A DNA stretch of 64,000 bases from a virus: IMG/VR virus record IMGVR_UViG_3300015371_000028, positions 2,932 through 66,931 of that record; one strand, written 5' to 3'. Positions 31,688 to 59,311 of the stretch are shown here, piece by piece (position 1 is the first letter of the stretch; each line of letters starts with the position of its first letter). Under the pieces are notes generated by a model that searched no databases, was not told the DNA's origin, and was given only the letters and a program-made list of their open reading frames with translations. The position numbers and the translations under genes were made by a program.

Positions 31688-31698
31688 AGGAGGCGGTG

Positions 31699-33297: not shown

Positions 33298-33313
33298 GTC
33301 GCCCTTCTCCTGA

Positions 33314-34272: not shown

Positions 34273-34469
34273 GCCTGATGAACTCCTTGGTCGTAGAGCG
34301 CTCGCTCGTCCTGACTTTCATGGAACGTAATGGCACAGGCTTTGTGGCCCATCGCGAGAATCATCTGCATCTCATGGAGTGCATCCTCCTTGTCCTGTTG
34401 CGCGGTGACGTGCCACGCTCCAGTCTCTTTGTCTTTCCAGACGACGAGAAAATACGTGCCGTTCGTCAT
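34269..34469 (-). CDS. Hypothetical protein
   Basis: ATGA overlaps on both sides. Confidence 0.55.
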   Translation of the reverse strand: MTNGTYFLVVWKDKETGAWHVTAQQDKEDALHEMQMILAMGHKACAITFHESQDERALYDQGVHQA

Positions 34470-34789: not shown

Positions 34790-34820
34790 CGCCCACTCAC
34801 TTTCTGCGGTAATATTGGCA

Positions 34821-35279: not shown

Positions 35280-36028
35280 GCCCTGACCTCTAGCAGATCG
35301 TCGTAGAGCGTGACCACGCTCGGCCACACATCGTCGGTGGGGAACGTGTGTCCATCCACGAGGCCGATCAGATTATTGAATTCGTGGCTGACCGAAAATC
35401 GCGGCGTGATGAGGCGATCTGGCCCCACCGTTTGTCGCATCATGACTTCGAGAAAATCGAGTTCGCCGCTGATTTCATGGCTTCGCTGCGGGAATGAGGC
35501 GATATTCGTGAACCGTTCGCTCTCGCTCAGGCGGTCCAGTTCCCGGCGCAACTGCACTTGCTTGCGCCGGGCTTCGTTCATTGCATCATCGTCGTGCTGA
35601 TGTACGAAATTCGTGTTGTACCAGTCCATCATCGCCGGACCGATCAACTTGTCTTCCAACGCGATGTGCAACGCCTTGCCGGTAAACTCGTTCCGCAATC
35701 GCTCGTAGAGGATCACAACGCGCTTCCGCTTGATGTCGATTGGCTCATCCGCCGTTCCCACCATCTTCGGGACCAACGGGATCATCTCCTGTCGGACCAA
35801 CTCCGGCGCGTTGTCATTGATGTAAATCCCGAAGCCCATCAGACTGTCATCGACACAGCGGGGCGAATCGCCCCACGGCAGATCGCACACCCAACTGACT
35901 GCTTCCATGACGCACATCTTGTAGTCGCGATTCCCACGACTCGGCGGGTTGTGAGCGCCCTGGTCGAGTTCGGTTACGCGTGCGAGTCGATAAGGGCTGA
36001 TTCCTTGCTCGTTCAGTATCAGCGGCAT
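35276..36028 (-). CDS. Hypothetical protein
   Basis: MCVMEAVSW..D.PRCV..IND motif of a recurrent phage family. Confidence 0.65.
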   Translation of the reverse strand: MPLILNEQGISPYRLARVTELDQGAHNPPSRGNRDYKMCVMEAVSWVCDLPWGDSPRCVDDSLMGFGIYINDNAPELVRQEMIPLVPKMVGTADEPIDIKRKRVVILYERLRNEFTGKALHIALEDKLIGPAMMDWYNTNFVHQHDDDAMNEARRKQVQLRRELDRLSESERFTNIASFPQRSHEISGELDFLEVMMRQTVGPDRLITPRFSVSHEFNNLIGLVDGHTFPTDDVWPSVVTLYDDLLEVRA

Positions 36029-36122
36029 AATGTTCCCCGTTTCTTGCTAATGTTGACTGCCGAGAATCCCTGCGATGTGCCTCCCGTTCGGTGCATCACC
36101 CCCTTTCCCGTGATCGCCACAC

Positions 36123-36872
36123 TCAAATGTGGGCGTCAATCAAAACTGCATAACAGTTGGTATGACCGGAAACAACCTCATAACGTTCGGCGTCCCAATC
36201 CTGTGGCTCCTTCTTATTTATGGACATTGCCCAATAACCCATTTGGCCCTTCTCGTGCCACTCACCGTCCTCGGTCACAATCGCCCAGACGCTCCAATCT
36301 GCGGGCAACTCCGTGACCTTGACGATGTATTGGTCGGCACCGTCCCAGCCTTCCCAGCGACCATTGATCGTCCACCAATCCCAGCGGCTCTTCGGGTTGT
36401 ACCGACTCGTGTATCTGCCCTTCCCGAAGCAGGACTGACAGGTGGGATCGGGCGCGTCTTTGAGCGGATGCGTCTCAAAGTAGGCGCGTTCCGTCGCTTC
36501 CCACGGTTTCAGCATCTCGTTCCACAGGGCTTGAAGTTTCTGGTTGTACGCGTCGAGTTCATCGAAGAAGGCATCTTTTTGTTCATCGCTGGCGAATTCG
36601 GTCGGTTGTTCGGGATAGGTCCAGCCGCGTTCTTCCACGACCTTCCGATGAGCGATGCGCAGGTCATCAATGGTGCCGTTGATCTGGGATGCGTACGTGT
36701 GCGCTGCCTCTTTCGCTGCGCGTCCGATGCAATAACAGATGCGGTCGTATTCCGGCACTTCCTTGTTCTCGTCGTATTCCGCGAGCCGTTCGTTAATCGC
36801 CATTTCGACAGCATCACTGTCGTTAATATCAGTGTCGCCGGGAATCAGCACCATCAAACCAAAATGCGTCAC
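36123..36872 (-). CDS. Hypothetical protein
   Basis: THF N-terminus, YNPKSRWDWWTINGRW, DGEWHEKG, C-terminal DAHI. Confidence 0.7.
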   Translation of the reverse strand: MTHFGLMVLIPGDTDINDSDAVEMAINERLAEYDENKEVPEYDRICYCIGRAAKEAAHTYASQINGTIDDLRIAHRKVVEERGWTYPEQPTEFASDEQKDAFFDELDAYNQKLQALWNEMLKPWEATERAYFETHPLKDAPDPTCQSCFGKGRYTSRYNPKSRWDWWTINGRWEGWDGADQYIVKVTELPADWSVWAIVTEDGEWHEKGQMGYWAMSINKKEPQDWDAERYEVVSGHTNCYAVLIDAHI

Positions 36873-37252
36873 GACGTGCCCCCTTTCGTTGTCAGGTAGC
36901 GGATTGCCGCTCCCACCAATTCGACCGCCTGCTTGTGCCCTTCGCGGGCGTCAGCGGCAGTTACATACCGCTGTTGGTATTCAAACAACGGATGATCCTC
37001 GGGCACGCCGAAGATCATCGTTTCAAAGAGCATTGGTGGCCCTTCCCAGGCATGATCGAGCGCGAGAAACACGGTCGAGACCCAAATGTGCTCATCGGTT
37101 GCGGTCTCCACCCACGCGTCCGGCACCAGCATGGTCGTCAGATCGACCCGTGCTTGGTCGCGATCTTCAAACGAGCCGAATTGGAAGTTCGCAACCGGGT
37201 AGACGGCATCAGTTTGTCGATCCCATGCGTAATACGTTGGTCGGTGATCCAT
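36869..37252 (-). CDS. Hypothetical protein
   Basis: VSTVFLALDH..PMLFETMIFG..RY.T..A..GH phage motif. Confidence 0.7.
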   Translation of the reverse strand: MDHRPTYYAWDRQTDAVYPVANFQFGSFEDRDQARVDLTTMLVPDAWVETATDEHIWVSTVFLALDHAWEGPPMLFETMIFGVPEDHPLFEYQQRYVTAADAREGHKQAVELVGAAIRYLTTKGGTS

Positions 37253-37291
37253 GTGCCGTCTCCCCGGTCACGTGCTCTCCCACCAGTTTAT

Positions 37292-37320
37292 AGTCTAACA
37301 TACGTGTGAGCTTATGTCAA
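37292..37320 (-). promoter_or_regulatory. Sigma70-like promoter
   Basis: Minus strand TTGACA-17 nt-TAGACT with an extended -10 TG. Confidence 0.6.
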
Positions 37321-38097
37321 GTCAGGTGAGGTGAGGGGCGCAAAGGTCTGACCCAGGCCGACATACGCATCGACCAGGGCGTGATCGAATGCTCGCTTGG
37401 TGAGCGGCATCCGGCCTTCTCCGAGCTTGATGATGTTGTCGGTCGGCGCGGCAACGAGGAAGGTGAAGAAGTCGTCATCGAGCCAGGATGGAACCCAGGC
37501 ACCGGAACGGCAGACGAAGATCGCATCGAAGACCGGAAGATTGCGAAAGGTGGCACGACCGGTCAGCTTGCGGTCATAGGTGAAGAGCAGATTATCCAGC
37601 GCCTCCTGACTGAGCGCGATCCTATCCAGGTCGGCATGTCTGCGATGCCAACTTGGATAGCGGATATGGACGGTTGGCTGAACATAGACCGCGTACCAGA
37701 GGAGCCAGGAGCCGCATTCGATGATGCCGTTTCGCACGTTGTCGAGCGCATCGTCGTAGTAGCCGAGGTCATGGTGCGCGTCGAAACTCCAGATCACCGG
37801 TTCGTCGGTGTCCCACACCATCGGCTCGTAGATACGAGAATCGACCGCAAACGCGTGCGATTCCGCGACATAGAGCGGCGCATCGGGCACGCACTTGATT
37901 CCCTCCCAAAACCAGGTCTCATGGCCGGTCGTGCGCGGCAGTTTCACTCCCGCGTTGTGAAATGCCGCTGCCCGAATTTCCCAGAGATCATTGATGAAGA
38001 GCGGCGCTTCACGATGGCCCCAATCATAGAGAAAGCCTTTTTCGTAGCCATCCCGATCCGCAAAGAAAAAATCCCAATCGACGCTCAAAAGGTTCAC
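37312..38097 (-). CDS. Arginase/deacetylase-fold (UPF0489-like) protein
   Basis: LSVDWDFF, ESH, FDAHHD and CRS.WVP motifs. Confidence 0.6.
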   Translation of the reverse strand: MNLLSVDWDFFFADRDGYEKGFLYDWGHREAPLFINDLWEIRAAAFHNAGVKLPRTTGHETWFWEGIKCVPDAPLYVAESHAFAVDSRIYEPMVWDTDEPVIWSFDAHHDLGYYDDALDNVRNGIIECGSWLLWYAVYVQPTVHIRYPSWHRRHADLDRIALSQEALDNLLFTYDRKLTGRATFRNLPVFDAIFVCRSGAWVPSWLDDDFFTFLVAAPTDNIIKLGEGRMPLTKRAFDHALVDAYVGLGQTFAPLTSPDLT

Positions 38098-38288
38098 CGC
38101 CGCCTCCTATTTTTGCGGGTGATGGGGATGCTCGGCTTCTCGTCATCCTGCGCAGCGACGGCGAGCATGGCGGCCCGTAACGCGTCGAGCACGCGGAAGA
38201 AGCGATCCCAGTCTGCTGCCGTCATATCGGTCGTCGTGGAAATCGTGACCGTGTGCACAGGAGTCACAGGTATCCGGATGTGCCTCAT
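38094..38288 (-). CDS. Hypothetical protein
   Basis: Overlapping start/stop coupling. Confidence 0.5.
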   Translation of the reverse strand: MRHIRIPVTPVHTVTISTTTDMTAADWDRFFRVLDALRAAMLAVAAQDDEKPSIPITRKNRRRR

Positions 38289-38668
38289 TGCTGATCTTTG
38301 CGCAGATTCCGACGCATATCAGCGGCGCGTTTTGCGTCGATCATCGCTTTCGCTTGCGGTGCCTCGCCGTCAAGCATCATCACCCCCGGTTCGGCCTCAC
38401 TCGCGTCATAGAACGACACCAGGACATACGCGACCTGGCGTTCATCGAGTCCAGTTGTGTCGATGCAGACGAGTTTGAGGCCGTCTCCGACCGAGAGTCT
38501 TCCCAGGTGTCCTTCGAGCCACGGGTGTTCGGTCAGGTTGAAATGCCGTTCCACGAGTGCCCACCGGCCCGGTGTGCAACAGTGCATTGATCCTTCCTCG
38601 TGCTCGACTTTGGCTTGTTCTGCCGTGATGTCGGTGATGTGATCGTCATGCTGATCTGTCATTGTCAC
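38285..38668 (-). CDS. Hypothetical protein
   Basis: GAGG RBS; starts just after array A1. Confidence 0.55.
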   Translation of the reverse strand: MTMTDQHDDHITDITAEQAKVEHEEGSMHCCTPGRWALVERHFNLTEHPWLEGHLGRLSVGDGLKLVCIDTTGLDERQVAYVLVSFYDASEAEPGVMMLDGEAPQAKAMIDAKRAADMRRNLRKDQQ

Positions 38669-38685
38669 TACCTCGTCGAAGCAGG

Positions 38686-39010
38686 TTGCCCTGCCTTACC
38701 GCGCCAAGCCCTACCGGGCCATGCCATGCCTGGCCTCGCCTCGTCTCACCATGCCGAGCCATGCCATACCGAACCTAACCTAGCCATGCCCGACCGGGCC
38801 TTGCCTCACCGGACCTTGCCTCACCGGACCTTGCCAAGCCATACCTAGCCCTGCCTCACCCGACCTCACCAAACCGGGCCTCAGCGAACCGTGCCATACC
38901 CGATCACGCCTCACCGCACCGGTCCACACCGCTCCATGCCGTGCACGACCTAGCCATACCTTGTCGGACCCTGCCTTGCCATACCGCGCCACGCCAAGTC
39001 CGACCCTGCC
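38686..39010 (-). repeat. GGY-NN pentamer array A1 (65 units), candidate guide ncRNA
   Basis: Plus strand reads NN-RCC in exact 5-nt register with no indels; 57 of 65 units canonical by hand count. Confidence 0.92.
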
Positions 39011-39046
39011 TCGGTTGGCTCCCGGCTGCGCTATCACCTGCAACCG

Positions 39047-39111
39047 GAACCACGCCATGCCTTACCGTACCGGACCCTGCCTGACCGAGCCTTGCCCGAC
39101 CCCGCCACGCC
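39047..39111 (-). repeat. GGY-NN pentamer array A2 (13 units), candidate guide ncRNA
   Basis: 13 of 13 units canonical; begins 7 nt after the RAMP-like gene stop. Confidence 0.9.
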
Positions 39112-39118
39112 TTGATTT

Positions 39119-39760
39119 TTAAGGCTCTACTGCTATGGTGATTGCGGTTACTGAGAACCGACCGAATGTTGGCCTAAAATCGCACAACCCAACGAGCCGA
39201 CCGGCTTGGTTAATGAGATGGGTCATCACGGGCAACGGTAGATATTCCGGTGTCGTGATCAACAACTCGAACGTCAACTGCCAACCCTCACGCATTGCGG
39301 GGCGAACGCGGGTGATACCGTTTCGCTGAACGGTCACACGACGACTATCCTCATAATCCCAACTCGCCGTCTTCGGTTGGAATTGAGCCACCACATCAAG
39401 CGCGATCACCCCGGCTTTTGCGAGGTCAAACGCGCTCTTGCGCGGCGATCTTGGGTCTTGCATGAACTTCGCGCTTTGCTGAATCGACGCTGCGAAGTTT
39501 TGCCCAGGAACACCGAGATAACCATCGGCATCCCGGTAGACATAACTTTCCAAGTCATCGGATTTCTTCGCCTTCGACCCTTTGGCTGCTGCTGCTTTCC
39601 CGGCCACTGATGCGACGTTCCAGGCGTGAAACAGCAACGGACTCACCCCGATGATACTGGCGGTGAGTCGGTACGGTTGTCCTTGAACAATGCTATCTGA
39701 GCCACCGTTCGTGACTTGTTGCTCATCAACTGCGAGTTTCTGATCTGCTGCTACAGGCAT
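39119..39760 (-). CDS. Stand-alone Cas7/RAMP-like protein
   Basis: IIGVSPLLFH first strand, GYLGVPGQNFAASI helix start, R.RP..W.LTF, and C-terminal Gly-rich loop AG..VGLCDFRPTFGRF; GAAAGGA RBS. Confidence 0.75.
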   Translation of the reverse strand: MPVAADQKLAVDEQQVTNGGSDSIVQGQPYRLTASIIGVSPLLFHAWNVASVAGKAAAAKGSKAKKSDDLESYVYRDADGYLGVPGQNFAASIQQSAKFMQDPRSPRKSAFDLAKAGVIALDVVAQFQPKTASWDYEDSRRVTVQRNGITRVRPAMREGWQLTFELLITTPEYLPLPVMTHLINQAGRLVGLCDFRPTFGRFSVTAITIAVEP

Positions 39761-39791
39761 TCCCCGTTCCTTTCATAACCTCGCCACAAAA

Positions 39792-39971
39792 AAACCACGC
39801 CATGCCCTGTCTTACCGTGCCGGACCGCGCCGGACCGAACCGCGCCAGACCGTGCCATGCCTCGCCTCGCCTTGCCGGGCTTGACCTTGGCTCACCGGGC
39901 CTCGCCTCACCAGACCATGCCTCGCCTGACCTAGCCTGGGCATACCAAGCCTCGCCCTGTTATGTCATGCC
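39792..39971 (-). repeat. GGY-NN pentamer array B (36 units), candidate guide ncRNA
   Basis: 30 of 36 units canonical; starts at the upstream stop codon and ends in a T8 tract on the minus strand. Confidence 0.92.
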
Positions 39972-40225
39972 TTTCCACCTCCTCGCTTAATCGCGTCGGC
40001 AATTCGTGATAAGAAGCGATCTGGATATTTATCTGGTGCCCCTAAGAGGTCGTGATAATGAATTAGCTCAGAAATAAAGTCCTCACGGTCATCGGGATCG
40101 AGCCGTGCCCAATAGCCGATCAGAATCTCGCGCAACTCGTGGTTCGTCATATTGCGCAATCGGCAACGTACGAGATTGTTAGAACGTGTGTAACTTAACT
40201 CAACCGCAACTTCTGGCTTGTCCAT
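39965..40225 (-). CDS. Small hypothetical protein linked to the RAMP/array locus
   Basis: 86 aa, AAGGGG RBS, AT-rich codons; matched by array B. Confidence 0.65.
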   Translation of the reverse strand: MDKPEVAVELSYTRSNNLVRCRLRNMTNHELREILIGYWARLDPDDREDFISELIHYHDLLGAPDKYPDRFLSRIADAIKRGGGKA

Positions 40226-40231
40226 TGCCCC

Positions 40232-40642
40232 TTACCACTCCAATTGGAATTCCCGGTGCTGGATCGCGGCTCCCGCAATCACCAGGGAGAAGAATTCCCG
40301 GACACCGATGGTGATGGTGCCGTCGAGGTCATCGCCTTTGACTTCCCCGTTTAAGGTCAGGTTATTGCCCTCAACATCAACGTCTGCGGCCCAATTGCTG
40401 CCCGCGACGAAGATGTGATCGTTCTCGATGTTCAGCATCACGGTGAACGCACCAACGCGCCAGGAAATGTGATGCGGTTCAATCACGCGGGCGTTCATCT
40501 CCGCGTCCGTGGTTCCGTACACGATCTGGGCTGCTTTCAGTAACCGTGCTGCTGCATCAGCGGCGTGCGTTAGTCCCGGTGTCAGTTGACTCGACACAAT
40601 GTTGGTCCCCCAAGGACGAGCTACCGGTGGCGTCATGGTCAT
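40232..40642 (-). CDS. Hypothetical protein
   Basis: First gene of the leftward block; start uncertain. Confidence 0.55.
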   Translation of the reverse strand: MTMTPPVARPWGTNIVSSQLTPGLTHAADAAARLLKAAQIVYGTTDAEMNARVIEPHHISWRVGAFTVMLNIENDHIFVAGSNWAADVDVEGNNLTLNGEVKGDDLDGTITIGVREFFSLVIAGAAIQHREFQLEW

Positions 40643-40840
40643 GGAGAGCAGATTTCCACAAGCCAGTATGCCCCCTGAACGAAGGAATCGAGCGGCGCTG
40701 TATCGGTTTCCTGACAGCGCACACTCGATTCGGAGCGCCGAGCACGGGACCAACGTGCGTCTCCCGGCTGGAGGACCGGGCGTCTAGGGTACTGGACCGT
40801 CGGCGCATGAGACCGGGGTTTGACCCCCGACCTTGACCCC

Positions 40841-40869
40841 ATTGTACGTACGCCCACGATCAGTGTCAA
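40841..40869 (-). promoter_or_regulatory. Leftward sigma70-like promoter
   Basis: Minus strand TTGACA-17 nt-TACAAT; would drive the array/RAMP block. Confidence 0.65.
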
Positions 40870-40917
40870 GCACTAAATTTGAGCGCCAGCATGTACTAAA
40901 AGCACGGATGCACTGAC

Positions 40918-40946
40918 TTGACATACGCGTCTCCGCGTGATACCAT
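40918..40946 (+). promoter_or_regulatory. Rightward sigma70-like promoter (divergent pair)
   Basis: TTGACA-17 nt-TACCAT with an extended -10 TG. Confidence 0.65.
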
Positions 40947-41086
40947 TGCACCAGGTGGTGCAAGGTTGAACCAGAGAAAAGGCCGGTGGGGGCGAAGCCA
41001 CCGGTCCTTTCCAACGGGGAATTACCGAACGTCCCACCGAGGCACATGGAGCAGGACACGCTGAGTCTAGCAACGGGAGCGACGCC

Positions 41087-41350
41087 ATGCAACATCCTGA
41101 ACCCGCACGCGACGGCAAGATGATTCAATTCACTTCGTATCCCCGTGATGAGTTTCCGCCGCCGCGACCACGCTGTCGCGTCTGTCATCGCCGGTTGCGG
41201 TCGCAGCCGTGGAGCACGCTGATGATCGGCCCGATCTGCGCGCGCAAGCAACCGGCGTTACTGGCGATGATCCGCAACGAATTCGCGCAGGCAGACAAAG
41301 CACCAGAGTTTGCGAAGCTGTTGGAGAATACCGGGTTAGCGGTGTCATGA
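41087..41350 (+). CDS. DUF6011-like zinc-finger protein
   Basis: CRVCHRRL..S..IGPIC pattern. Confidence 0.65.
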   Translation: MQHPEPARDGKMIQFTSYPRDEFPPPRPRCRVCHRRLRSQPWSTLMIGPICARKQPALLAMIRNEFAQADKAPEFAKLLENTGLAVS

Positions 41351-41615
41351 GTTCGGCGCTGCGCTCGCTCTGGTCGAGCTACATTCCCAATCGGTACGGC
41401 GCGTTCGGGACGGTGTTGCGCATACCGCTGACACCGGGGCAAACAATGGAGGAAGGAATTGACGTATGGATGAACCGGTTGAACGCGAACGATTCAATGC
41501 CTCAGACCACCTCACTGACCTTCGGGGTCGGGCCTACCTCGAAGCTGCAACGGGGCAGTTATCCCTACACAACGAAACCGGCGCTGCTCGATAAGTGCTA
41601 AGAAAGGACAATTCG

Positions 41616-42299
41616 GTGGCTGAAGTTGAACGAGTACGATTTCGACCAGAGGACCACATCACCGACATTCGCGGCGCTGCCTATATCGAAGTGAAGTGGC
41701 GTTTAGTGTGGTGTCACGACTACGCGGAAGCTCATGGCTATCGTTTAGAACTGGATACGCAACACATCGCGATGGACACCACTTTCGCCGCGTTCAAAGC
41801 GACAGCGCGGTTGCTCGATGAGAACGGGATGGTCGTCAAGGCCGCATCCGGGTACGGCACCGAGCAATCGCAAGACTTCGGAGATTTCATCGAAAAGGCC
41901 GAGACGAAAGCGCTCGGTCGCGCCCTGGCCGCGTGCGGCTTTGGCACTCAGTTCTGCGAGGACTATGACTTCGGGTCCGAGCACGGGTACGTCGTCGATA
42001 GCCCAGTCGAGCAGCGCTCTGTGCGCACCAGCAGCGGCGGCAGCAATCGCAATGCGGTCGTGACCAACATCAACGGCGGCAGCCGGGGCACGCCGAACGA
42101 TCTTCTCACACCACGTCAGGCGAGCTACATCGAATCCCTCTTGAACGAATACGGCCAACGCGGGAATGACGTGAGCGAACACCTGCGCATCTTCGGCACC
42201 CTCTCCCGTGCCACCGCGTCACAGTGGGTCGATCAGATGACCAAAGAACGGGTGCTGCCACTCCTCCCAAAAGCACCGAGCGCGGCGAACCCGGCTTAG
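41616..42299 (+). CDS. Rad52/Sak-like single-strand annealing protein
   Basis: YIEVKWRL, ASGYG and EKAETKALGRALA..GFG motifs; GAAAGGA RBS. Confidence 0.7.
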   Translation: MAEVERVRFRPEDHITDIRGAAYIEVKWRLVWCHDYAEAHGYRLELDTQHIAMDTTFAAFKATARLLDENGMVVKAASGYGTEQSQDFGDFIEKAETKALGRALAACGFGTQFCEDYDFGSEHGYVVDSPVEQRSVRTSSGGSNRNAVVTNINGGSRGTPNDLLTPRQASYIESLLNEYGQRGNDVSEHLRIFGTLSRATASQWVDQMTKERVLPLLPKAPSAANPA

Positions 42300-42610
42300 A
42301 CCCCGATCTTCGGTCGCGCTTGGAAACCGATAACGATAAAAGCCGGGTGGTGTGGGGGAACATCGTCCGTCATGTGGGCGATGATAATCTAACGTGGGTG
42401 AATCTGATGGACATCGCGACCGGCGCGGCGCTCGTTGCGTCCGATCCGTTGGAGCATGCCTTCAAGTTCGCGATTCTCGCGGAGTGTGCGCCGACCGCAC
42501 AGTTCGTGGACATGATCTACACCAACGCGCGCAATTGTGGCGCAATGACGCCGGACATCGAAGAAATTGTCGAACGGCGATTAACGAGGGAGTTTAGTCG
42601 GACCACCTGA
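42224..42610 (+). CDS. Hypothetical protein
   Basis: Fills the operon gap; start uncertain. Confidence 0.45.
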   Translation: MGRSDDQRTGAATPPKSTERGEPGLDPDLRSRLETDNDKSRVVWGNIVRHVGDDNLTWVNLMDIATGAALVASDPLEHAFKFAILAECAPTAQFVDMIYTNARNCGAMTPDIEEIVERRLTREFSRTT

Positions 42611-42620
42611 GAGGGCACGC

Positions 42621-42908
42621 ATGGTCCCGAACATGCAGGTGCCGCTGTCGAAGAAGCAGAAACTCGTGCTCTACTGCTTGACTGACAACGCGGCACGCAA
42701 TGGCCCCGGTAGCGAACGGGAGGTTGTGATGCGACGCAAGCAGATCATGGATGCCACCGGGTTGTCCGAGCGTCACGTCCCCTATGTGTTACGGAAGCTG
42801 GAGTCATTGGGCTACATCACGACGATTCCGCAACGTCGTCCGGACGGCAGCGCTGATGCCAATTGTTACGTCGTCCACGATCTTGACGAGCGGAGAGCCG
42901 AAATCTAA
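42621..42908 (+). CDS. Winged-helix DNA-binding protein
   Basis: IMDATGLSERHV..LRKLESLGYI..ANCY. Confidence 0.7.
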   Translation: MVPNMQVPLSKKQKLVLYCLTDNAARNGPGSEREVVMRRKQIMDATGLSERHVPYVLRKLESLGYITTIPQRRPDGSADANCYVVHDLDERRAEI

Positions 42909-43390
42909 GCTGGGAGCGGGCGCTGTGGGACAACGGTCGCCCGGAGACAACCCTCTCCCTCCTGGCGATGATTCTTGCGCAACAGAGTCATCGTCGGCTC
43001 AACAATGCGCCGGGCCTCTGCAACGACCCGGCGCATTTCCCTTCCCTTGACTCCCGGTTGGCAGCCGAGGGAGTGGCCACATCATAGCAAAGCCGGATTG
43101 ATCTACGAGTTGCCTTGAACACTTGTCGGGTGTAGGCTACCTAAAAGCGAAACCCCAGACCGAAGTCTGGGGTCGCACGGCTCTTAAATTGTCGGACTCC
43201 AAAGGGGGCTACCAAAAGAGTCCTTAGCTGGGGGCTTGGGAGCACCCGTTCAGATGAGGGGCTGGGGAGCACCCTATCTGGTTTTCACACTACCACGTGC
43301 AAAGTCGTTTCGTCAAGTCCCTTTGTTGTTGCTCCCAGGCATAAGGGACACCGGGATTCGTAGCAAGCTGCACAAAAAGGGGGGCACATC

Positions 43391-44245
43391 GTGATCGTGA
43401 CGCAGAAGACCGTCATCGAGATTCTGTCAGACAACTCCGTTCCTCTGACCGCCCGCGTGGTCTACGTCAAGCTCGTTGACTACTGCACGAGAGAGCGCGG
43501 CTGCTTCCCCGGCGAACAACGCATCGCAGATGATCTGAGCCTTTCGCTTCGGACGGTACGTCGTGCGTTGCGGGAATTGATCGACATGGCGTGGATTAAA
43601 TGCACGCACCGTGGTGCAACAAAGACCAACGTCTACGCCTTGAATCGGTACGTCGATGGTCTGGAAGTGACCGGTCAAAATGACCCATCACATGCACGGC
43701 AAGCGGTCAAAATGACCGGTCATGATGGGTCAAAACGACCGGTCATGACCGGTCAAAATGACCGCCAAACTAAATTAGAAGAACGTAATAAAGAAGAACT
43801 ACCTACCGGTACTATCGTACCGGTAGCACCGCCCCCCGAAATCCCCAAACCAAAATCGAAGGCAAGTGAGAAACCTGCTCCCGCGAATTACGTGCTGATG
43901 TCAAAGTTCCATCAATTGCGCGGAACAGAAATTCCGGCGCGCGACAGCACATCGTTCGGAACCGAAATCACGCAAGCAAGTCGTCTCGTCAAAGACGGTG
44001 TTACCGCAGATGATCTTCCGGCACTGATCGAGCATGCGTCAACTTGGGCGAAGCGGGGAATCACGTTGGGCGTACTGGTATCCGATGTTGCTCAGTGGCG
44101 TGATAGCACGAACGGAAAGGTGCAGCCCACTAAGAGCAAGAATGAACGCGTGTTCGATGAGTTTTATCGCATGATGGGGAAGCCCCGCGACGGTGCTGCA
44201 ACCGTGAGCGATGTCTTTGAGGCGCAAGGACGAGTGGTGTCATGA
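43391..44245 (+). CDS. Replication initiator (N-terminal wHTH)
   Basis: CFPGEQRIADDLSLSLRTVRRALREL..TNVY; contains internal iterons. Confidence 0.8.
   Translation: MIVTQKTVIEILSDNSVPLTARVVYVKLVDYCTRERGCFPGEQRIADDLSLSLRTVRRALRELIDMAWIKCTHRGATKTNVYALNRYVDGLEVTGQNDPSHARQAVKMTGHDGSKRPVMTGQNDRQTKLEERNKEELPTGTIVPVAPPPEIPKPKSKASEKPAPANYVLMSKFHQLRGTEIPARDSTSFGTEITQASRLVKDGVTADDLPALIEHASTWAKRGITLGVLVSDVAQWRDSTNGKVQPTKSKNERVFDEFYRMMGKPRDGAATVSDVFEAQGRVVS
43673..43763. repeat. Iterons of a putative replication origin
   Basis: GGTCAAAAYGACC at 43673, 43705, 43728 and 43751, followed by an A-rich tract. Confidence 0.75.
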
Positions 44246-44793
44246 GTGATCGGCTTACTGAGGCGTTGGAGATTATGTTTGAGGTGATGCCGTCTTCGCA
44301 GGAAGCGACGCCCCGCATGATTGCGACCTACGCAGATCGCCTCAGTAATCTCCCTGAAGATGCGGTGCGCGAGGCGATTGCCCTCTTGATTGATACCAAG
44401 ACGTTCCGCCCGACGATTGCGGAGATTCGCTCAACCGTGGCAGAAACCAGTTTATTCGTGCGGAACAAGAAGATCGGGGAAGAGGCATGGCAGGAGGTAG
44501 TTCAGCAAGCGAGTGCGGTGGGCTTCACCGAAAACCGGCCAGAGTTGCGCGTCTTTTCGGGTGGTCGGTTCCACGACCCACCTAGGCCTATGTTCAGTGA
44601 CCCGATGATTGAGAAAGCGGCCTACCTCGTCGGGTGGCGTCGTATCTGTCAGCACGACGTGGAGAAAGAAGGGCCGTTTATCAGAAAGGAGTTTTTGCGT
44701 ATTTACGGAGAGCTTTTCTCGGCAGAAGTCCAGGCGTTGCAGAGTGGCGCAATAGCATTGTCGGAGGGCGAGGACAATGAGCGAGCCGTTTGA
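44242..44793 (+). CDS. Helicase loader/inhibitor-like protein (G39P-like)
   Basis: Follows the initiator; L..LP...VREAI..FRPTIAEIR. Confidence 0.6.
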   Translation: MSDRLTEALEIMFEVMPSSQEATPRMIATYADRLSNLPEDAVREAIALLIDTKTFRPTIAEIRSTVAETSLFVRNKKIGEEAWQEVVQQASAVGFTENRPELRVFSGGRFHDPPRPMFSDPMIEKAAYLVGWRRICQHDVEKEGPFIRKEFLRIYGELFSAEVQALQSGAIALSEGEDNERAV

Positions 44794-45292
44794 ATGGACC
44801 AGCAACCGGCCACCGACGCCGGAAGAGCAAGTGGCGATTCAGGATGTGTACGACCTCGCGGTGGGATTTATCAACGACGACACATCACTCGAAGAAATCC
44901 GTGCTGCTTCCACCGGAAAGCAACGCGCGGTGGCGATGAAGTTTACGAAGCACCCCCAGCACCCGATGAAACCGGCATTGCGGATGATGATTGACGCGTT
45001 GGTTGAGGACCAAGACGGCATCATCACGACTGAAAAGCATCTCACGTTCACGACTGCCGATCTTGCCGAATATCAGGCGATTCTGGTGACGAAGAACGGG
45101 CGGCGTGTGCTTCAGTTTCCGTTCAAACATCCGTGGGAGAAGAAGCCAGACAAGGATGGGATGGGCGGTGTTCGTGGCCGTCCACTCTATCGCGACAAAG
45201 ACGCGATTTACAACCGTGAAACACAGGCAGCACCGTACGAACCGGAGTGGTGGGAAGAAGAAAAGCCGCCGAATGACAACGAGTTGACATAA
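44777..45292 (+). CDS. Hypothetical protein
   Basis: GAGGA RBS; 171 aa. Confidence 0.6.
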   Translation: MSEPFEWTSNRPPTPEEQVAIQDVYDLAVGFINDDTSLEEIRAASTGKQRAVAMKFTKHPQHPMKPALRMMIDALVEDQDGIITTEKHLTFTTADLAEYQAILVTKNGRRVLQFPFKHPWEKKPDKDGMGGVRGRPLYRDKDAIYNRETQAAPYEPEWWEEEKPPNDNELT

Positions 45293-45617
45293 CAATCTAG
45301 CACGGGTGTAATGGGACCGGGAACCACCTGGTCCCATTCGCACGAAAGGGGGCAGCGCATGAAGGAGAAGCGCCGCCGATCCGACATCCGCGCGAACGCG
45401 GTTTCGTGTCAGGGCAAGACGGCCTTCGTCACGTTCGGGGAGGCCGAACGGAACCGGAAGCATCTGCGCTATGACATCGGAATCAGGGAGCCGATGACGA
45501 CCTATCGCTGTGAGGCATGTCATGCGTATCACATCGGTCGGATCGCGGAACAGCAGCAACGCAAGCGGCGGATGTTCCGTCGCTGGAAACGATGTCTGAT
45601 GATGGAGGCACAGGACA

Positions 45618-45956
45618 GTGAGCGCGGTACGGGCGGACGAGCCAAAAGCACGACACGATTTCGCCGCTATGTGGGGCGAAAAGAGCAAGAAGTTGGACGA
45701 GAATATCGCGCAATTCGTCGAATCAACCGGCTTGAAGTCGCGCCGGGATGCTGATTGCATGGACCCCCCGATTGCCAACGGCCAGCGCATGATCGTGATC
45801 GCCGGGGACGGAACGCGCAGGCCCGATCTGGTCGGGATTACCGGTAGCGTCGAGAAGAAGACCATCCAACGGCAGACCTACTATCTCTTCATGCTCGACA
45901 ACGGCGAAGTCGTGACCTCAGACGATGTGTGGTGGCGGCGTGAGTCGGGTGTGTGA
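45618..45956 (+). CDS. Hypothetical protein
   Basis: CAGGA RBS; coupled to the next ORF. Confidence 0.5.
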   Translation: MSAVRADEPKARHDFAAMWGEKSKKLDENIAQFVESTGLKSRRDADCMDPPIANGQRMIVIAGDGTRRPDLVGITGSVEKKTIQRQTYYLFMLDNGEVVTSDDVWWRRESGV

Positions 45957-46273
45957 TGACGGAAAAGCATCTACCGCTGGCAGAAGAACTGTTGCTGGTT
46001 TGCCCAGTGTGCGGAGACACCTACCAGCATCACACGACCGTCACGATCTTCGACCGGTTGGGCGGCGAGGACGGTCAGAGTATGGCCATGAACTCGGCGC
46101 ACGGAACGTGGGTGGCGATAGCGAACGCAGACAACCCATCGTCGCGCCGCGATGCGGTTCGGGTCCATTTCTGGGGCGAGTGCGGGCACACCTGGAGTCT
46201 CGATTTCGTCCAGCACAAAGGGCAGACGTTCGTCACCGCGAACCTGATGATCGGCGCTGAGACATCGACTTGA
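45953..46273 (+). CDS. Zinc-ribbon hypothetical protein
   Basis: CPVCG..NPSSRR..ECG..QHKGQT. Confidence 0.65.
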   Translation: MMTEKHLPLAEELLLVCPVCGDTYQHHTTVTIFDRLGGEDGQSMAMNSAHGTWVAIANADNPSSRRDAVRVHFWGECGHTWSLDFVQHKGQTFVTANLMIGAETST

Positions 46274-46298
46274 CATCGCGTCGGTTATTTGATAAGAT
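46270..46298 (+). promoter_or_regulatory. Sigma70-like promoter
   Basis: TTGACA-17 nt-TAAGAT with an extended -10 TG. Confidence 0.55.
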
Positions 46299-46330
46299 AC
46301 ACGTATACGAAAGTTAGGACAGGAGGAGCA

Positions 46331-46639
46331 ATGGCAGATCAGGAAACTTCGAGCGCGTTGACCGAGCAAGAACGCGCGTACATCGCATCGTTGCCGCCGA
46401 TCACGTACGTCTCCGCGAACGATCTGACGCCGGAATTGCAGGCGCGGCGCGCCGAGGACATGCGCAATATGTACTACGATCCGGAGAACCCGATGTCGAT
46501 GATTGACATCGGCATCGTCTACGGATTGACCCGCGAACGGGTGCGCCAGATATTCAAGCAATTCGACATTCCGGTCAGACCTCGGCCTGAGGCACGGGCG
46601 ATTGCCCAGCGGCGGCGGGAAAAGATCGCGGCAGGATGA
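46331..46639 (+). CDS. Sigma-70 region 4-like HTH protein
   Basis: IGIVYGLTRERVRQI; AGGAGG RBS. Confidence 0.75.
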   Translation: MADQETSSALTEQERAYIASLPPITYVSANDLTPELQARRAEDMRNMYYDPENPMSMIDIGIVYGLTRERVRQIFKQFDIPVRPRPEARAIAQRRREKIAAG

Positions 46640-46811
46640 GTTGGTCTGACTTCTTCTGGGGGCTGGTCATCGTAATCGCGTTGACGGTCTGGATGCGCGG
46701 TGTCAGTAACCACAACCACCGCTGGCATTTCTACGAGTACCTGTTCAGCGGGTGCTTGTTGACCGTGCTGCTGGTCGCCGCACGGCAGTTTTTTTAACGG
46801 GGAGAACCAAC

Positions 46812-47315
46812 ATGCGCTTCACGGCGATGTACATCGCAGACATCTCGCGACTGGGCGAGCAGTCGGTTGATGAGCTATACGACTCGATGGAGGGCAAAGA
46901 ACGCGCCGGGAAAGGGATCGTCGATGAGTGGATTGACGAGCACTTCAACAAGACCGTGCGCTGCATGGTCTGTGGCACCCGTGGTCGCGTCAACCCGAAT
47001 GACGACAACGATATGGTCATCACGATCAGCAGCGAAGGTGGCGTCATCATCGCTTGTGATGAGTGCTTGGGGATGTTCTGTTACACCGCGATCCTCGGCA
47101 TGCGCGACAAGCAATCGGGCGAAGTCGTCGGCAGGATCACGACCGATCTGGTCAAGCGCACGATCACCGGGGCCGAAGAAAAGCTGGCGAATTCGATGGG
47201 GGGGTTGATCGCGTTGCAGCAAGCCGCCAATCTGTACCAGCGAACGACGCGGGAGGACGATAGCCCGGAAGCGAAAATGAAATGGTTCGCGGAAAAGCTC
47301 AACTATCAGGCGTAG
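46812..47315 (+). CDS. Hypothetical protein (two CxxC)
   Basis: GGGAG RBS; CMVC..CDEC. Confidence 0.6.
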   Translation: MRFTAMYIADISRLGEQSVDELYDSMEGKERAGKGIVDEWIDEHFNKTVRCMVCGTRGRVNPNDDNDMVITISSEGGVIIACDECLGMFCYTAILGMRDKQSGEVVGRITTDLVKRTITGAEEKLANSMGGLIALQQAANLYQRTTREDDSPEAKMKWFAEKLNYQA

Positions 47316-47586
47316 GTTGCGGCGGAATACGCAGGGACATGGGCGCAGAATGCGGCGAGATTGTGGGCGCACATTGGAACGGGACATGATGGTCGTCAGA
47401 ACAGCCGATCATGAATGGCAACTGTTGCGCAATGCACTGGACGAGCGCGATGCGGCGAATGCGCGCGCCGACCATGCGGAACGCCGACTCCACCATGCGA
47501 ACCGTCTCTTGACGATTGCGTGTTGTGGTCTCGTCGGCTTGTGGTTGGTGTTCATGCTGGTGCTGCTGTCGTGAAAGGGCGAGTCG

Positions 47587-48063
47587 ATGAAAGTGACCAA
47601 GAAGCGCACCATCGGCGGGGTGATCGAAGTAGACAAATTTGACGATGCGGAGCCGGTGCGTCATGCGACGGTGGATTGGACCGGGTTGACGGACGCGCCA
47701 CCGGTTGAAGGCGCTCTGACCACCACGTTTCCGGTCGAAGATGAGGTCAAAGCCGCCGCGACGCTCGTCCGCGATTGGCTCAAACGCTATGAGCAATGGA
47801 ACGCGGACGCGATTCCGGTCATGCTGCGTCACGCGCATGTGCCTGACGAGACCAAGCACGAAATCTTTGACGCCTACCGCAACTCCATCGGGATATTAGG
47901 GTCACTCCAAATGGCGATGGACTTGATTATCAATGGCATGTCGGTCGAGGCTTTAGTCGATCCTGTCTTGGCGCGGGCGATGCGGTCGGCAGCGCGCACC
48001 GCCGACACCCCCGCCGACGAGGACTTCGAGGCCGACCTCTCCCGGCCTGACGACGGCGAGTAA
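47587..48063 (+). CDS. Hypothetical protein
   Basis: 158 aa directly upstream of array C. Confidence 0.6.
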   Translation: MKVTKKRTIGGVIEVDKFDDAEPVRHATVDWTGLTDAPPVEGALTTTFPVEDEVKAAATLVRDWLKRYEQWNADAIPVMLRHAHVPDETKHEIFDAYRNSIGILGSLQMAMDLIINGMSVEALVDPVLARAMRSAARTADTPADEDFEADLSRPDDGE

Positions 48064-48096
48064 CCCGGCATCCGTTTGAGCGTTCACATTCGCCAC

Positions 48097-48411
48097 GGTG
48101 TGCCGAGGCATGGCTCGGCAAGGCGGGACATGGCGGGGTTTGGCAGGGCATGGTATGGCCGGGCGTGCTCCGGTCAGGCGAGGCATGGTTTGGCCCGGTT
48201 TGGCGCGCTCCGGTTAGGCGAGTCGTGGTACGGCGAGGCAAGGTCAGGCGAGGCAAGGTCAGGCGAGGCGCGGCGCGGTCAGGTCTGGTGAGGCAAGGCG
48301 GGACGTGGTGCGGGAAGGCGAGGTCCGCTGAGTTGGGGCTTGGTTAGGCACGGCAAGGCTCGGCTCGGTAGTGCGTGGTAGGGCGGGGTATGACATGGCA
48401 TGGTGAGGCCG
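48097..48411 (+). repeat. GGY-NN pentamer array C (63 units), candidate guide ncRNA
   Basis: 52 of 63 units canonical, exact register, intergenic, GGY on the locally transcribed + strand. Confidence 0.92.
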
Positions 48412-48470
48412 AGCCGATCCCGTATGGGAACGTAACGTAACGCCGTACGGCGAGCAATATCGCCCTCGCG

Positions 48471-48499
48471 TTGACATTCTGATGTTATGAGAGTATAAT
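48471..48499 (+). promoter_or_regulatory. Consensus sigma70 promoter
   Basis: TTGACA-17 nt-TATAAT. Confidence 0.8.
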
Positions 48500-48542
48500 A
48501 CGTACGTGCGAACGCGCACACACCATTAGAAAAGCGGTTCTG

Positions 48543-50732
48543 ATGGTCGGGCAGCGAAAGGAGTTGCGAGTGGCAGAAGCGGAGGAATTACCAATCTTAC
48601 CGATCCTGCAAGTAGGCACCGAACAAGCGTTCACGGGCGAGGAATGTGTTTATGTGCTGACGCGTTACTTGGCGGGTAACTGCGACGGTGCGCACCGACC
48701 GGATGGCGTGGGATTCAACCGAGTCCAAACGGCGTTCGGTCATCAAATGGCAGAGCAACCGTTTCGATACTGGACGCCACGTCAAACGTGGGCCATGTAT
48801 CGGGTGTTGCAAACCTACAAGAACACGCAGTTGGCACCGTGGTGGGACTTGGTGCCGGAGATACCGGAGCCGGTCAATCCCAACGCCCAGCGCGAAGCGG
48901 AGTACGCGGAGTGGCGACGGAAGAAGGAACCAACCTACGAGCCGCCGAAGCAGTTTCGCAAGATGGTGACGACCACCATCAACGGCCAATCGTTCATCGA
49001 GCTACAGCAAAACTACGATCCCGGCTTGATCGAACGGATCAAGATGCTGCCGCAGCGTCGGTACCTCAAAGAGCGGCAATGCTGGGTCGTGCCGATTCAT
49101 TTGGACGCGTTGGAAGCCGTGACCTCGTTCGCGATGGAGTACGGCTACGAGATTGAACCGGAAGTCGAAGCGGCGATCACCGAAACGATGGATGCGTTCG
49201 CGGCACGGATCGAGTTGTCGCATGCGTCTGATGGCGAGTACCAGATCGCGCTGCCACCGGGACTGGAGTTGTATCCCTTCCAGAAGATCGGCGTGCAGTA
49301 CGCGGAGCAGGTAGGCAACGTCCTGATCGCGGATCAAATGGGTCTCGGCAAGACCGTGCAAGGGCTCATGACCGTGGCGGTGACGCACTCGTTTCCGACC
49401 ATTGTCCTCTGCCCTGCAAGTCTGAAGCACAACTGGTTTCGCGAAACGCAGAAGTGGATTCCCGGCAAGCGGGTCGCGATCCTGAACGGGGGCCAATCGC
49501 AACCACTGACGCGGGTCAACGGCGATCCGATGTTCGATGTGGTCATCATCAACTACGACATCCTCGGCAAGTGGATGGAAGAGTTGACGTTGCTCAAACC
49601 GAAAGCCCTGATCGCGGATGAGTGTCACGCGGTCAAGTCTCCGAAAGCCCAGCGGACCAAGAATGTGAAGGTGCTGATCGACGCGTGCCCTGGGATGCGT
49701 CGCATCTTCCTCTCCGGAACGCCGGTCGTGAACCGGCCAATGGAATTCTGGACGCTGATTTCCTTGCTCGGCTACAGCAAAGAAATGGGTGGCCTCATAG
49801 ATTACAAGCGTCGCTACGAGAACGCGTGGCAGTCGCGCTTGCATGAGTTGAACACCAGGGCGCGGACCTACTTCATGATCCGGCGTTTGAAGGTCGATGT
49901 TCTCAAAGAACTGCCGGACAAACAGCGGACGATGGTGCCCATCGACATCGACAATCGTAAGGAATATGACGCGGCGGTCAACGACATCGCGGGCTACTTC
50001 GCGACCAAGAAGATTCAAGGCGACGAATACGACGCGGTGAAGATGTCGCTGATGGCGCAAGCGATCAGTCAGGGCATGCTCGGTGACGAAGGCATGAAGT
50101 GGGTCAACGAGCAGATGCGCACGCAGTTCGGCGCGGACTACAGCAAGTTCTACCTAATCGCGGCACAGAACGAAGAGTTGCTGCGGTGGGAAGCGCTGAA
50201 GCAACTGGCGGTCGAAGGGAAGATGGCCGGGGTCTACGCCTGGCTCGATGAATTTATGGAATCGGACGAGAAAGTGGTGGTGTTCGGCCTGCACACGTCG
50301 GTGATCGAACGGATCGCGCGACGCTACAACGCCCCGTACATTCACGGCAGCGTCAAGATCGAGCACCGGCAGTATCACGTGGATCGGTTTCAGACCGATC
50401 CCAAGTGCCGGATGATTGTCGGCAACATGCAAGCAATGGGGGAAGGATTGACCCTGACAGCGGCGAGCAACGTCGCGTTTGTTGAGTACGGCTGGAACCC
50501 GAAGACCCACGATCAGGCAGAAGATCGCTGTCACCGCATCGGGCAAAAAGATGCGGTCATGATCTGGAACCTGACGGCGGAAGACACCATCGACGAAGAA
50601 TTGGCGGCGATGATCGAGAAGAAACGAATGGTGGCGGATGCGATCCAAGACGGAGCCGGGGTCGCGAATCAGATGGAGATGATGCGCGAACTGCGGGAAA
50701 CGCTCGGCAAGAAATTGGGACGCGTCCTCTAA
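48543..50732 (+). CDS. SNF2-family (SMARCAL1-like) helicase
   Basis: LIADQMGLGKT, DECH, LSGTP, GEGLTL and QAEDRCHRIGQ motifs. Confidence 0.92.
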   Translation: MVGQRKELRVAEAEELPILPILQVGTEQAFTGEECVYVLTRYLAGNCDGAHRPDGVGFNRVQTAFGHQMAEQPFRYWTPRQTWAMYRVLQTYKNTQLAPWWDLVPEIPEPVNPNAQREAEYAEWRRKKEPTYEPPKQFRKMVTTTINGQSFIELQQNYDPGLIERIKMLPQRRYLKERQCWVVPIHLDALEAVTSFAMEYGYEIEPEVEAAITETMDAFAARIELSHASDGEYQIALPPGLELYPFQKIGVQYAEQVGNVLIADQMGLGKTVQGLMTVAVTHSFPTIVLCPASLKHNWFRETQKWIPGKRVAILNGGQSQPLTRVNGDPMFDVVIINYDILGKWMEELTLLKPKALIADECHAVKSPKAQRTKNVKVLIDACPGMRRIFLSGTPVVNRPMEFWTLISLLGYSKEMGGLIDYKRRYENAWQSRLHELNTRARTYFMIRRLKVDVLKELPDKQRTMVPIDIDNRKEYDAAVNDIAGYFATKKIQGDEYDAVKMSLMAQAISQGMLGDEGMKWVNEQMRTQFGADYSKFYLIAAQNEELLRWEALKQLAVEGKMAGVYAWLDEFMESDEKVVVFGLHTSVIERIARRYNAPYIHGSVKIEHRQYHVDRFQTDPKCRMIVGNMQAMGEGLTLTAASNVAFVEYGWNPKTHDQAEDRCHRIGQKDAVMIWNLTAEDTIDEELAAMIEKKRMVADAIQDGAGVANQMEMMRELRETLGKKLGRVL

Positions 50733-58799: not shown

Positions 58800-59038
58800 G
58801 TGGACGAGTTTGATGTCGAGGCGGTCTTCACCTTTCAGGCGAAGTCCATCGACGATGCGATCCGCCAGGCGGAAGCCCTGGTCAGTTGGCTCGCAGAACA
58901 CGCGGACGCGCTGGAGGAGGCGACCATCGACCTGATCGGCGTGCTTCTGCCGAGCGACGAGGAACCAGGCGCAGATTGAAACGAGGCGCAGGTCACGACT
59001 GGGCGTAGGTTGCAACGAGGCGCAGAAGGAGACTGGGC

Positions 59039-59311
59039 GTGGATTCCGACTGGTTCTGGCGGGGTCTCTATCTCTTGACTATCGGGGTGCAAGTGTTTGC
59101 GCTGTATCACCAACGGCGAACCATCCGCGAACAGGGCACCGTGATTGACGATCTGCTCGATGACCTGCATACGGGCGGTGATCTGCTCTCGCGGCAACGC
59201 GACACGATAGTCATCCTCAGTGAGCAGTACGAACTCCTGGCTCATCACTGCCTCGGCCCATCGGATCAGCAGAACGCGCAGCGCAGCAAACCGAACATTT
59301 GTCCAAATTAG
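59039..59311 (+). CDS. Small membrane/coiled-coil protein
   Basis: AAGGAG RBS; N-terminal hydrophobic helix. Confidence 0.5.
   Translation: MDSDWFWRGLYLLTIGVQVFALYHQRRTIREQGTVIDDLLDDLHTGGDLLSRQRDTIVILSEQYELLAHHCLGPSDQQNAQRSKPNICPN

Follow-up and report, generated by a model that had tools for sequence, protein, structure and literature searches.

A 63-unit GGY-NN array distant from vipr: a candidate VIPR guide array in a phage of a soil-type clade

The vipr locus and its repeat arrays

The window analysed here is a stretch of 64,000 nucleotides (nt), bases 2932-66931 of the 66,931-base IMG/VR virus record IMGVR_UViG_3300015371_000028, which is estimated to be 94% complete. It carries a gene, vipr, for a putative effector of the Viral Interference Programmable Repeat (VIPR) type, and four arrays built from five-base units of the form GGY-NN. 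Arrays B, A2 and A1 flank vipr in non-coding DNA, all on its minus strand. The fourth, array C, with which we are mainly concerned, lies on the plus strand within the replication block, 8,337 nt from the vipr gene, in the intergenic space between an open reading frame (ORF) on its left and a consensus promoter on its right that begins after a gap of 59 nt (Table 1). An earlier annotation made from the DNA letters (the original prediction) had described 63 plus-strand, intergenic GGY-NN units at this position, 8 kb from the effector and ending 60 nt ahead of a consensus promoter, and the unit count, coordinates and measured distances bear this out.

VIPR was described in 2026 in three bioRxiv preprints, the first in April, mainly from enterobacterial and Pseudomonas phages. 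According to the sections of these preprints on which we draw, the system consists of a minimal RAMP protein, Vipr, and guide RNAs termed vrRNAs, the characterised (type II) examples of which comprise 9-16 YNNGG repeats followed by a structured 3' tail; it recognises double-stranded DNA through the NN pairs, with one base skipped per unit, and brings about transcriptional silencing of competing phages and satellites (bioRxiv 10.64898/2026.04.26.720920). The same preprint distinguishes seven types, including some with staggered and some with ribozyme-interspersed arrays, and states that the loci 'typically' carry a vap (vipr-accessory) gene. In the structure of the Vipr filament there is one protomer per repeat, with residues D177, W178 and R179 of the SUSP1 protein holding the GGY, and natural vrRNAs are given there as having up to 30 repeats (10.64898/2026.04.26.720927).

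Array C is 315 nt long and holds its 63 units in a single register, 52 of them being strict GG[C/T]NN. Position 1 is G in 62/63 units, position 2 is G in 54/63 and position 3 is C or T in 62/63; positions 4 and 5 vary, 15 different NN pairs and 32 distinct units being present overall. The period-5 power of G peaks at 5.9 over the array, the median for the window being 0.16 and the 99th percentile 1.3, and the only other period-5 regions of the window, 38681-39131 and 39781-39981, are both C-strand signals. An array caller run on the whole 66,931-base record returned exactly four arrays, called at 61 (C), 33 (B), 13 (A2) and 65 (A1) units; the bounds adopted here give 63, 36, 13 and 65. No register shift occurs anywhere in C, nor in A1. 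In all four arrays GGY lies on the strand of the flanking ORFs, in agreement with the original prediction that GGY tracks the transcribed strand.

Tandem Repeats Finder reports only periods of 5, 10, 15, 20 and 40 for array C, and hence no repeat-spacer array of the type associated with clustered regularly interspaced short palindromic repeats (CRISPR); internal duplications of 15 nt and 40 nt are present. Array C was considered as a coding sequence and rejected, the 5-nt period being unable to hold a reading frame and the overlapping ORFs reaching just 65-71 amino acids (aa). It was likewise considered as a copy of A1, A2 or B. The longest strings it has in common with these are 14, 12 and 18 nt, respectively, and since these fall within the range given by unit shuffles (maxima 17-23) array C is not a recent copy of any of them.

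The protein encoded by vipr, P0001, falls in no Pfam family, and its match to phrog_4652 (1.7e-19) is to a PHROG of which the function is not known. One solved structure was matched in the PDB, 36pp_D, the 'SUSP1 Vipr protein' (E 8.7e-5, 25.8 bits, residues 130-206). In the C-terminal G-loop, GLCDFRPTFGRFSV of P0001 aligns with GVGDWRPRFGRFSV of SUSP1, placing D194-F195-R196 on the D-W-R of the latter, with the aromatic Phe replacing Trp; D194 and R196 are invariant in 36 relatives. An AlphaFold model of P0001 built on 36 relatives has a mean predicted local distance difference test (pLDDT) score of 80.6, and when it was submitted to Foldseek the best matches were to Cas7/Csm3 RAMPs of type III and type VII CRISPR complexes (E 7e-6), with 83 matches at E <= 0.001 and template-modelling (TM) scores by query length of 0.39-0.49 among the matches listed. 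By this alignment and this predicted fold, the product of 39119-39760 is a Vipr protein, a RAMP with a Cas7/Csm3-like fold. We assign the locus to VIPR because of the match to SUSP1 Vipr and because GGY-NN arrays flank the gene as in published loci; on these sequence features the locus is a VIPR system, with array C built to the same grammar as VIPR guide RNAs. P0001 is just a distant relative of the SUSP1 protein (25.8 bits), for which reason it probably belongs to another of the seven types.

The likeness to VIPR as described thus extends to a RAMP-fold Vipr with a D-aromatic-R G-loop, to GGY-NN units that flank vipr on its own strand, and to carriage by a phage. There are marked differences, however. 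Arrays C and A1 run to 63 and 65 units in one register, compared with the 9-16 (up to 30) repeats given in the preprint sections cited above; one array is on the opposite strand at a distance of 8.3 kb; and there is no conserved vap gene beside vipr, although this does not exclude the locus from VIPR, since the preprint says only that loci 'typically' have one. A parallel may also be drawn with the crRNA (CRISPR RNA)/Cas7 backbone of class 1 CRISPR systems, in which RAMP protomers polymerise on a guide RNA and flip bases out periodically. Unlike those systems, the present locus has no repeat-spacer array or other cas genes (no other cas-like gene was found between 36 and 52 kb in the window), its period is 5 nt rather than 6 nt, and its code is gapped.

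Table 1. Features of the window around vipr and array C, in order of position.
Feature	Position	Strand	Description
Array A1	38686-39010	-	65 units in one register, 57 strict GGY
Hairpin between A2 and A1	39011-39046	-	possible 3' tail of A2; z -1.4, weak
Array A2	39047-39111	-	13 perfect GGY-NN units, just downstream of vipr
vipr gene	39119-39760	-	213 aa, P0001, predicted RAMP protein, between B and A2
Array B	39792-39971	-	33-36 units, upstream of vipr
Promoter-like site	40841-40869	-	11/12
Promoter-like site	46270-46298	+	10/12, TG extended
ORF	47587-48063	+	158 aa, no known family, directly upstream of array C
Array C	48097-48411	+	63 GGY-NN units; candidate vrRNA array distal to vipr, on the opposite strand
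Hairpin 3' of array C	48418-48452	+	possible 3' end structure, weak
Promoter	48471-48499	+	TTGACA-17-TATAAT, 12/12, sigma-70-type consensus

Vipr relatives and the NN-x code

The Vipr family is large, with 6,775 proteins at E <= 0.001 among 7,385 candidates, and relatives are found in metagenome-assembled genomes of many phyla. For comparison we used 237 related loci (80 from IMG/VR, 77 GTDB genome contigs and 80 from JGI metagenomes, not dereplicated), each comprising up to 10 kb on either side of vipr, with many falling short of 10 kb on both sides; together with phage DSL-LC04 and the present window these provide 206 distinct vipr DNAs. One JGI metagenome locus, L162, is from the same phage, being 99.9% identical over window positions 30300-43421, and stops short of array C. 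The closest other Vipr for which DNA was fetched (L085) has 70% identity, the best in IMG/VR has 58%, and a megablast search of the phage collection for a close relative that includes array C gave no match. The closest cultured phage is DSL-LC04, from a lake (OR003939.1; L001, 19968-20585), with a Vipr of 53% identity. Its Vipr homologue is annotated as a 'helix-turn-helix transcriptional regulator', and it carries about 41 unannotated GGY-NN units, which lie only upstream of vipr.

Leaving aside the SNF2 helicase, 10 ORFs near vipr or array C were compared with the related loci, and for none of them was a homologue present (tblastn, E 1e-4). No conserved accessory gene is thus seen, and vipr and its arrays behave as a small mobile cassette. 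The arrays of the 237 loci are on the vipr strand and almost always within ~1.5 kb of vipr. Opposite-strand arrays occur in one of the 237 (L133), where they adjoin vipr, and an array more than 5 kb from vipr is found only in L017, L137, L138 and L222. Long arrays, on the other hand, are common in the clade, with 71 units in L005, 113 in L051, 116 in L071 and 137 in L141; in the last of these, 135/137 units are GGY.

In many loci (among them L005, L006, L016, L021, L043, L133 and L140) adjacent arrays are offset by exactly 1 nt, giving a 6-nt junction, and these offsets probably mark vrRNA boundaries in 'staggered' arrays. The relatives fit the staggered vrRNA arrays described, with '1 nt overlapping positions', in the legend of fig. 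S18 of one preprint (10.64898/2026.04.26.720920), as far as that legend goes, whereas C and A1 do not. Locus L133 has 97 units in three 1-nt-staggered blocks, with its arrays at 7486-7970 (-) and vipr at 8122-8751 (+); the arrays lie there between two plus-strand ORFs, so that GGY is not on the strand of the flanking genes.

Guides were sought with an NN-x scan, in which the NN strings of the four arrays were compared with the phage's own genome and 160 loci (2.24 Mb) at skips of 0-3 bases per unit, using an ungapped local score of +1 for a match and -2 for a mismatch. Skip 3 returns only the trivial self-match (26 for A2). At skip 1, array A2 scores 18 on L085, with nine perfect units, compared with top scores of 13, 12 and 12 at skips 0, 2 and 3 when the self-match of 26 is left out. 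Further skip-1 matches occur in L054, L145, L114, L107 and L083, and every one falls at the vipr 3' end, on the strand antisense to the gene. When A2 was compared with the 206 distinct vipr genes, ten perfect units were matched on L202; on rival vipr genes in general it gives 9-10 perfect units and scores of 18-20, against top scores of 10-13 at other skips. Read as codons, the matched units correspond to the family-invariant motif L-V-G-L-C-D-F-R-P-T. A2 resembles described VIPR guides in following an NN-x rule with a 1-nt skip, and its predicted target is part of a coding sequence, where the base skipped is that of the wobble position.

The phage's own vipr gene is matched less well. At the A2 site (window positions 39168-39205) it agrees at 18/26 positions, and in the ten-unit core there are three mismatches, all at the first position of six-fold degenerate Leu or Arg codons: the gene has CTC, TTG and AGG where A2 reads TTn, CTn and CGn. 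Because A2 is perfect on rival genes and the core mismatches in the phage's own gene are synonymous, we read A2 as an anti-rival guide from which the phage's own gene escapes. A2 is thus predicted to target rival vipr genes at their conserved 3' end, and the choice of synonymous Leu and Arg codons in the resident gene looks like self-avoidance by recoding. Guides against rival vipr genes, with lower self-match, are reported for SUSP1-like phages in the consulted sections of the third preprint (10.64898/2026.10.15.759431), and the present phage is like these in having an anti-vipr guide that matches its own gene less than those of rivals.

When 232 arrays were scanned against vipr genes, scores of at least 16 were obtained for four at skip 1, none at skip 2 and one at skip 0. 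One of the four matches involves units 19-29 of a 30-unit array in L071, implying that a guide segment can sit within a longer array. Judged by these matches, the NN-x code is active in this Vipr clade. For array B there is a hint of something similar. Its units 3-18 match an ORF just upstream (39965-40225, -) at 40022-40069, in frame and at 26/32 NN positions, with two of the six mismatches being Leu synonyms; 3/100 shuffles score equally, and the match could reflect a guide against rivals' copies of this upstream gene, or could be due to chance.

Function and origin of array C

What, then, does array C do? We consider, with a probability of about 0.7, that it is a guide array of the vrRNA type that serves Vipr in trans, and that it probably contains several guide segments directed against elements outside the search space; several segments are most likely because there are 63 units in one register. 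The promoter-like site at 46270-46298 precedes five plus-strand ORFs (46289-48063), no terminator-like site was found between these ORFs and array C, and this site could both drive the ORFs and read through into the array. Transcription of array C would then proceed rightward, the array forming an untranslated 3' end to the early operon, which ends at 48063. Vipr, from its gene 8.3 kb away on the other strand, would bind this RNA in trans, one protomer per GGY, and the exposed NN would pair with double-stranded DNA, one base being skipped per unit (NN-x), with silencing of the gene bound. Array C would on this account be a guide bank, with segments laid end to end against genes of competing phages, satellites or prophages. 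Its transcription, its loading by Vipr, its segmentation into guides and the kind of target are all matters that we infer.

The original prediction had rebuilt the VIPR logic from sequence alone, proposing that the arrays act as RNA and in trans, with the NN pairs read against a gapped NN-x target. This is the published VIPR mechanism, and its NN-x code gives the specific matches of A2 described above; for array C, however, no above-control target was found.

A number of results weigh against a guide function for array C. In the 2.24 Mb of own genome and 160 loci its top score at skip 1 is 14, the same as at skips 0 and 2, and its best NN-x score in its own genome is 13, a value reached by 15/100 unit shuffles, which upholds the earlier statement that C has no convincing collinear self-match. 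A peptide-level scan of the phage's own genome gives a top score of 5.5, compared with shuffle means of 5.8-5.9. Public collections were searched with exact-match seeds that cover ~36/63 array C units and allow zero mismatches. There were 0 exact matches in IMG/VR to units 31-40, to units 7-17 (with unit 14 as wildcard) or to units 48-58 (with unit 55 as wildcard), and 0 in GTDB representative genomes to units 31-40. Shorter seeds were matched exactly, with 12 matches to units 33-40 in IMG/VR and, in GTDB genomes, 5 to units 7-15 and 10 to units 48-56, but none of these 27 8- or 9-unit matches extends, the six flanking units on each side agreeing at 0-7 of 12 positions, as expected by chance. 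The check put forward with the original prediction, a search for gapped matches of C above shuffled controls, has thus been run and has found none, in searches that were either small or limited to exact matches. For that reason the absence of such matches does not refute the proposed function, and the seed searches in particular are weak tests, being exact-match only over ~36/63 units.

Other points against a guide function concern the array itself. Of its 63 units 11 are not GGY, and it has neither the published vrRNA length (9-16, up to 30 repeats) nor a shared 3' tail or pseudoknot. A 74-nt fold at its 3' flank has a predicted energy of -28.7 kcal/mol (z -1.7), with 10/200 shuffles as stable, and no sequence is shared between this flank and those of A1, A2 or B. 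A search of the region 37500-49500 against Rfam, including hammerhead ribozymes, at E <= 1 found nothing on the arrays, and one chance-level match elsewhere. The distal, opposite-strand position is rare among the relatives, and the runs listed as holding the stretch are DNA runs, with no RNA run among them. Nor is base composition of much help. Purines are frequent at N4 (G 24, A 19 of 63) and G is scarce at N5 (10/63), as at codon positions 1 and 2, and for sense codon starts the NN string has a score of +10.6 bits, compared with a background null of -6.7 (standard deviation 4.6) and 14.6 above antisense. Random re-pairing of N4 with N5 gives the same codon-like score, however, so that the base make-up of N4 and N5 explains all of it. 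Because this null scores equally, the codon-like composition may be a constraint on binding rather than the trace of a coding target, and it is a weak hint only.

Comparison of strains shows how the arrays change. Parts of the stretch occur in DNA runs that carry the labels soil, rhizosphere and mine metagenome, and contigs from four of these runs were compared. A 29-kb contig from run X1 is close to the window, with 47 differences in the 2.9 kb to the left of C, and skips 38793-39893 (1,101 nt, with 9 nt shared at the joint). Lost with this deletion are A2 and vipr in full and A1 and B in part; since 1,101 is a multiple of 5 plus 1, and the registers of B and A1 differ by 1, the joint fuses these two arrays in register. 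The same contig keeps array C, in which 51 nt at 48221-48271 have become 11 nt (a net change of -40 nt, or 8 units), as they have also in a contig from run X5, and 30 nt (6 units) are inserted after 48335. The X1 strain is a natural VIPR-null variant that keeps arrays, including C, and array C evolves by whole units. In a low-depth contig from run X4, 47998 is joined to 48261 with 12 different letters in between, a hint that array C may also occur in a shorter form.

The retention of array C in a near-identical strain without vipr suggests the possibility that it is a decoy or hijacking RNA, one that with its 63 Vipr-binding sites soaks up or redirects the Vipr of co-infecting rivals, or a guide bank for any Vipr in the cell. 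Solo vrRNAs are described in satellites and in phages no longer carrying vipr, and act in this way, those of satellites redirecting the VIPR of the helper phage towards decoy sites located in the host (10.64898/2026.10.15.759431, in the sections used here). Array C is like them in being a GGY-NN array away from the vipr operon, and the X1 variant, which has lost vipr from between flanking arrays with arrays kept, is like the VIPR-null phages that have solo vrRNAs. A decoy would also be in keeping with its distance from vipr and its place in another operon, which uncouple its expression from that of vipr, and with the lack of any target found for it. We nevertheless think this explanation, the strongest of the alternatives, unlikely. 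Vipr is intact here, 8.3 kb away, and the published rule for a solo array requires that there be no Vipr on the contig or that the nearest be >20 kb distant (10.64898/2026.10.15.759431). The term 'orphan' used in the original prediction is thus apt for an array that is distal and in a separate operon, but with a Vipr inside the 20-kb limit it is not a solo array as published. Solo vrRNAs, as the same sections portray them, are short and have a conserved 40-nt tail, in contrast to the 63 units and lack of such a tail in array C, and the phages that have them are of another lineage and habitat than the present one, which is from soil, rhizosphere and mine metagenomes by run labels. No decoy-like multi-copy match for C emerged from the phage's own genome or when GTDB genomes were scanned with 9-unit seeds, and rival Vipr proteins, which are just 45-79% identical, might not load foreign arrays.

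That array C is a relic, a piece of VIPR array recombined into the early region and drifting there without function, we judge to be distinctly unlikely, even though its 11/63 units without GGY, its internal 15-nt and 40-nt duplication, its rare position and the failure to find a tail or a target would all suit such an origin. Array A1, beside vipr, has a similar imperfect share (8/65), implying that imperfection is not specific to C, and what C has in common with A1, A2 and B does not exceed what unit shuffles give. It is, moreover, on the transcribed strand, and it has held its register over 315 nt with strain changes that are multiples of 5 nt, which neutral decay would not keep. A role that does not involve RNA is very improbable, there being no specific point that speaks for it. 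GG every 5 nt could in principle form G-quadruplexes, and a DNA-level element (a two-tetrad quadruplex, or a protein-binding array acting on early replication or transcription) would be in keeping with the location of C in the replication block, as a short coding sequence would be with the overlapping ORFs of 65-71 aa. The same grammar, however, flanks vipr both in this genome and across hundreds of relatives, what varies in the units coincides exactly with the NN of the published code, no reading frame could be held through a period of 5 nt, and there is no relevant Rfam family or Pfam match.

A guide array used in trans by Vipr therefore remains the preferred interpretation of array C. An extension of it, which is speculative and seems to us rather doubtful, is that array C is a stand-alone guide bank, kept with or without vipr, transcribed as part of the replication operon and loaded by whichever compatible Vipr the cell contains, whether the phage's own or that of a rival, then either forming very long filaments (up to 63 protomers on ~190 bp of DNA) or giving several guides cut tail-lessly from one precursor. 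If the guide-bank interpretation is true, this clade makes or uses vrRNAs in a manner unlike that of the type II systems that have been studied, and guides are uncoupled from their effector inside a single phage population.

Array C is of a kind already known, in a variant layout, and leaves the known VIPR mechanism unchanged. The same VIPR grammar operates in a distant, soil-type Vipr clade with a different layout, the variants being that some arrays are very long and lack a tail, that one further array stands in a separate operon on the opposite strand, and that a natural strain has lost vipr from between its flanking arrays but keeps guides. The consulted sections of the three preprints, supplements aside, describe no distal, opposite-strand second array in a phage that still has vipr, no tail-less, single-register arrays of 63-137 units and no soil-type clade like the present one; the array caller used for the preprints stops at 40 units (10.64898/2026.10.15.759431). 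These variants bear on how long arrays become working guides, on whether guides and effector can be inherited or exchanged separately, and on how phages avoid their own anti-vipr guides, which here is apparently by way of synonymous Leu and Arg codons.

Neighbouring genes and other repeats

The consensus promoter to the right of array C precedes the gene for an SNF2-family helicase (48543-50732, +). On the minus strand, the promoter-like site at 40841-40869 could drive a leftward operon that includes array B, vipr, A2 and A1, the last of which abuts the ribosome-binding site of the ORF at 38285-38668. The 10 ORFs compared around vipr and array C, from which this helicase is excepted, have no informative Pfam or PHROG match.

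Within a gene that resembles replication initiators (43391-44245), a 23-nt unit, CGGTCAAAATGACCGGTCATGAC, is repeated 2.7 times at window positions 43704-43764, and these repeats look like origin iterons of the lambda O type. In the X1 contig, 2.6 kb of different sequence stands in place of window positions 43381-45279 (1.9 kb of the replication module); this mosaic exchange begins at the initiator gene. Further tandem repeats are located at 58963-59045, with periods of 17/34, and at 63934-63999, with a period of 13.

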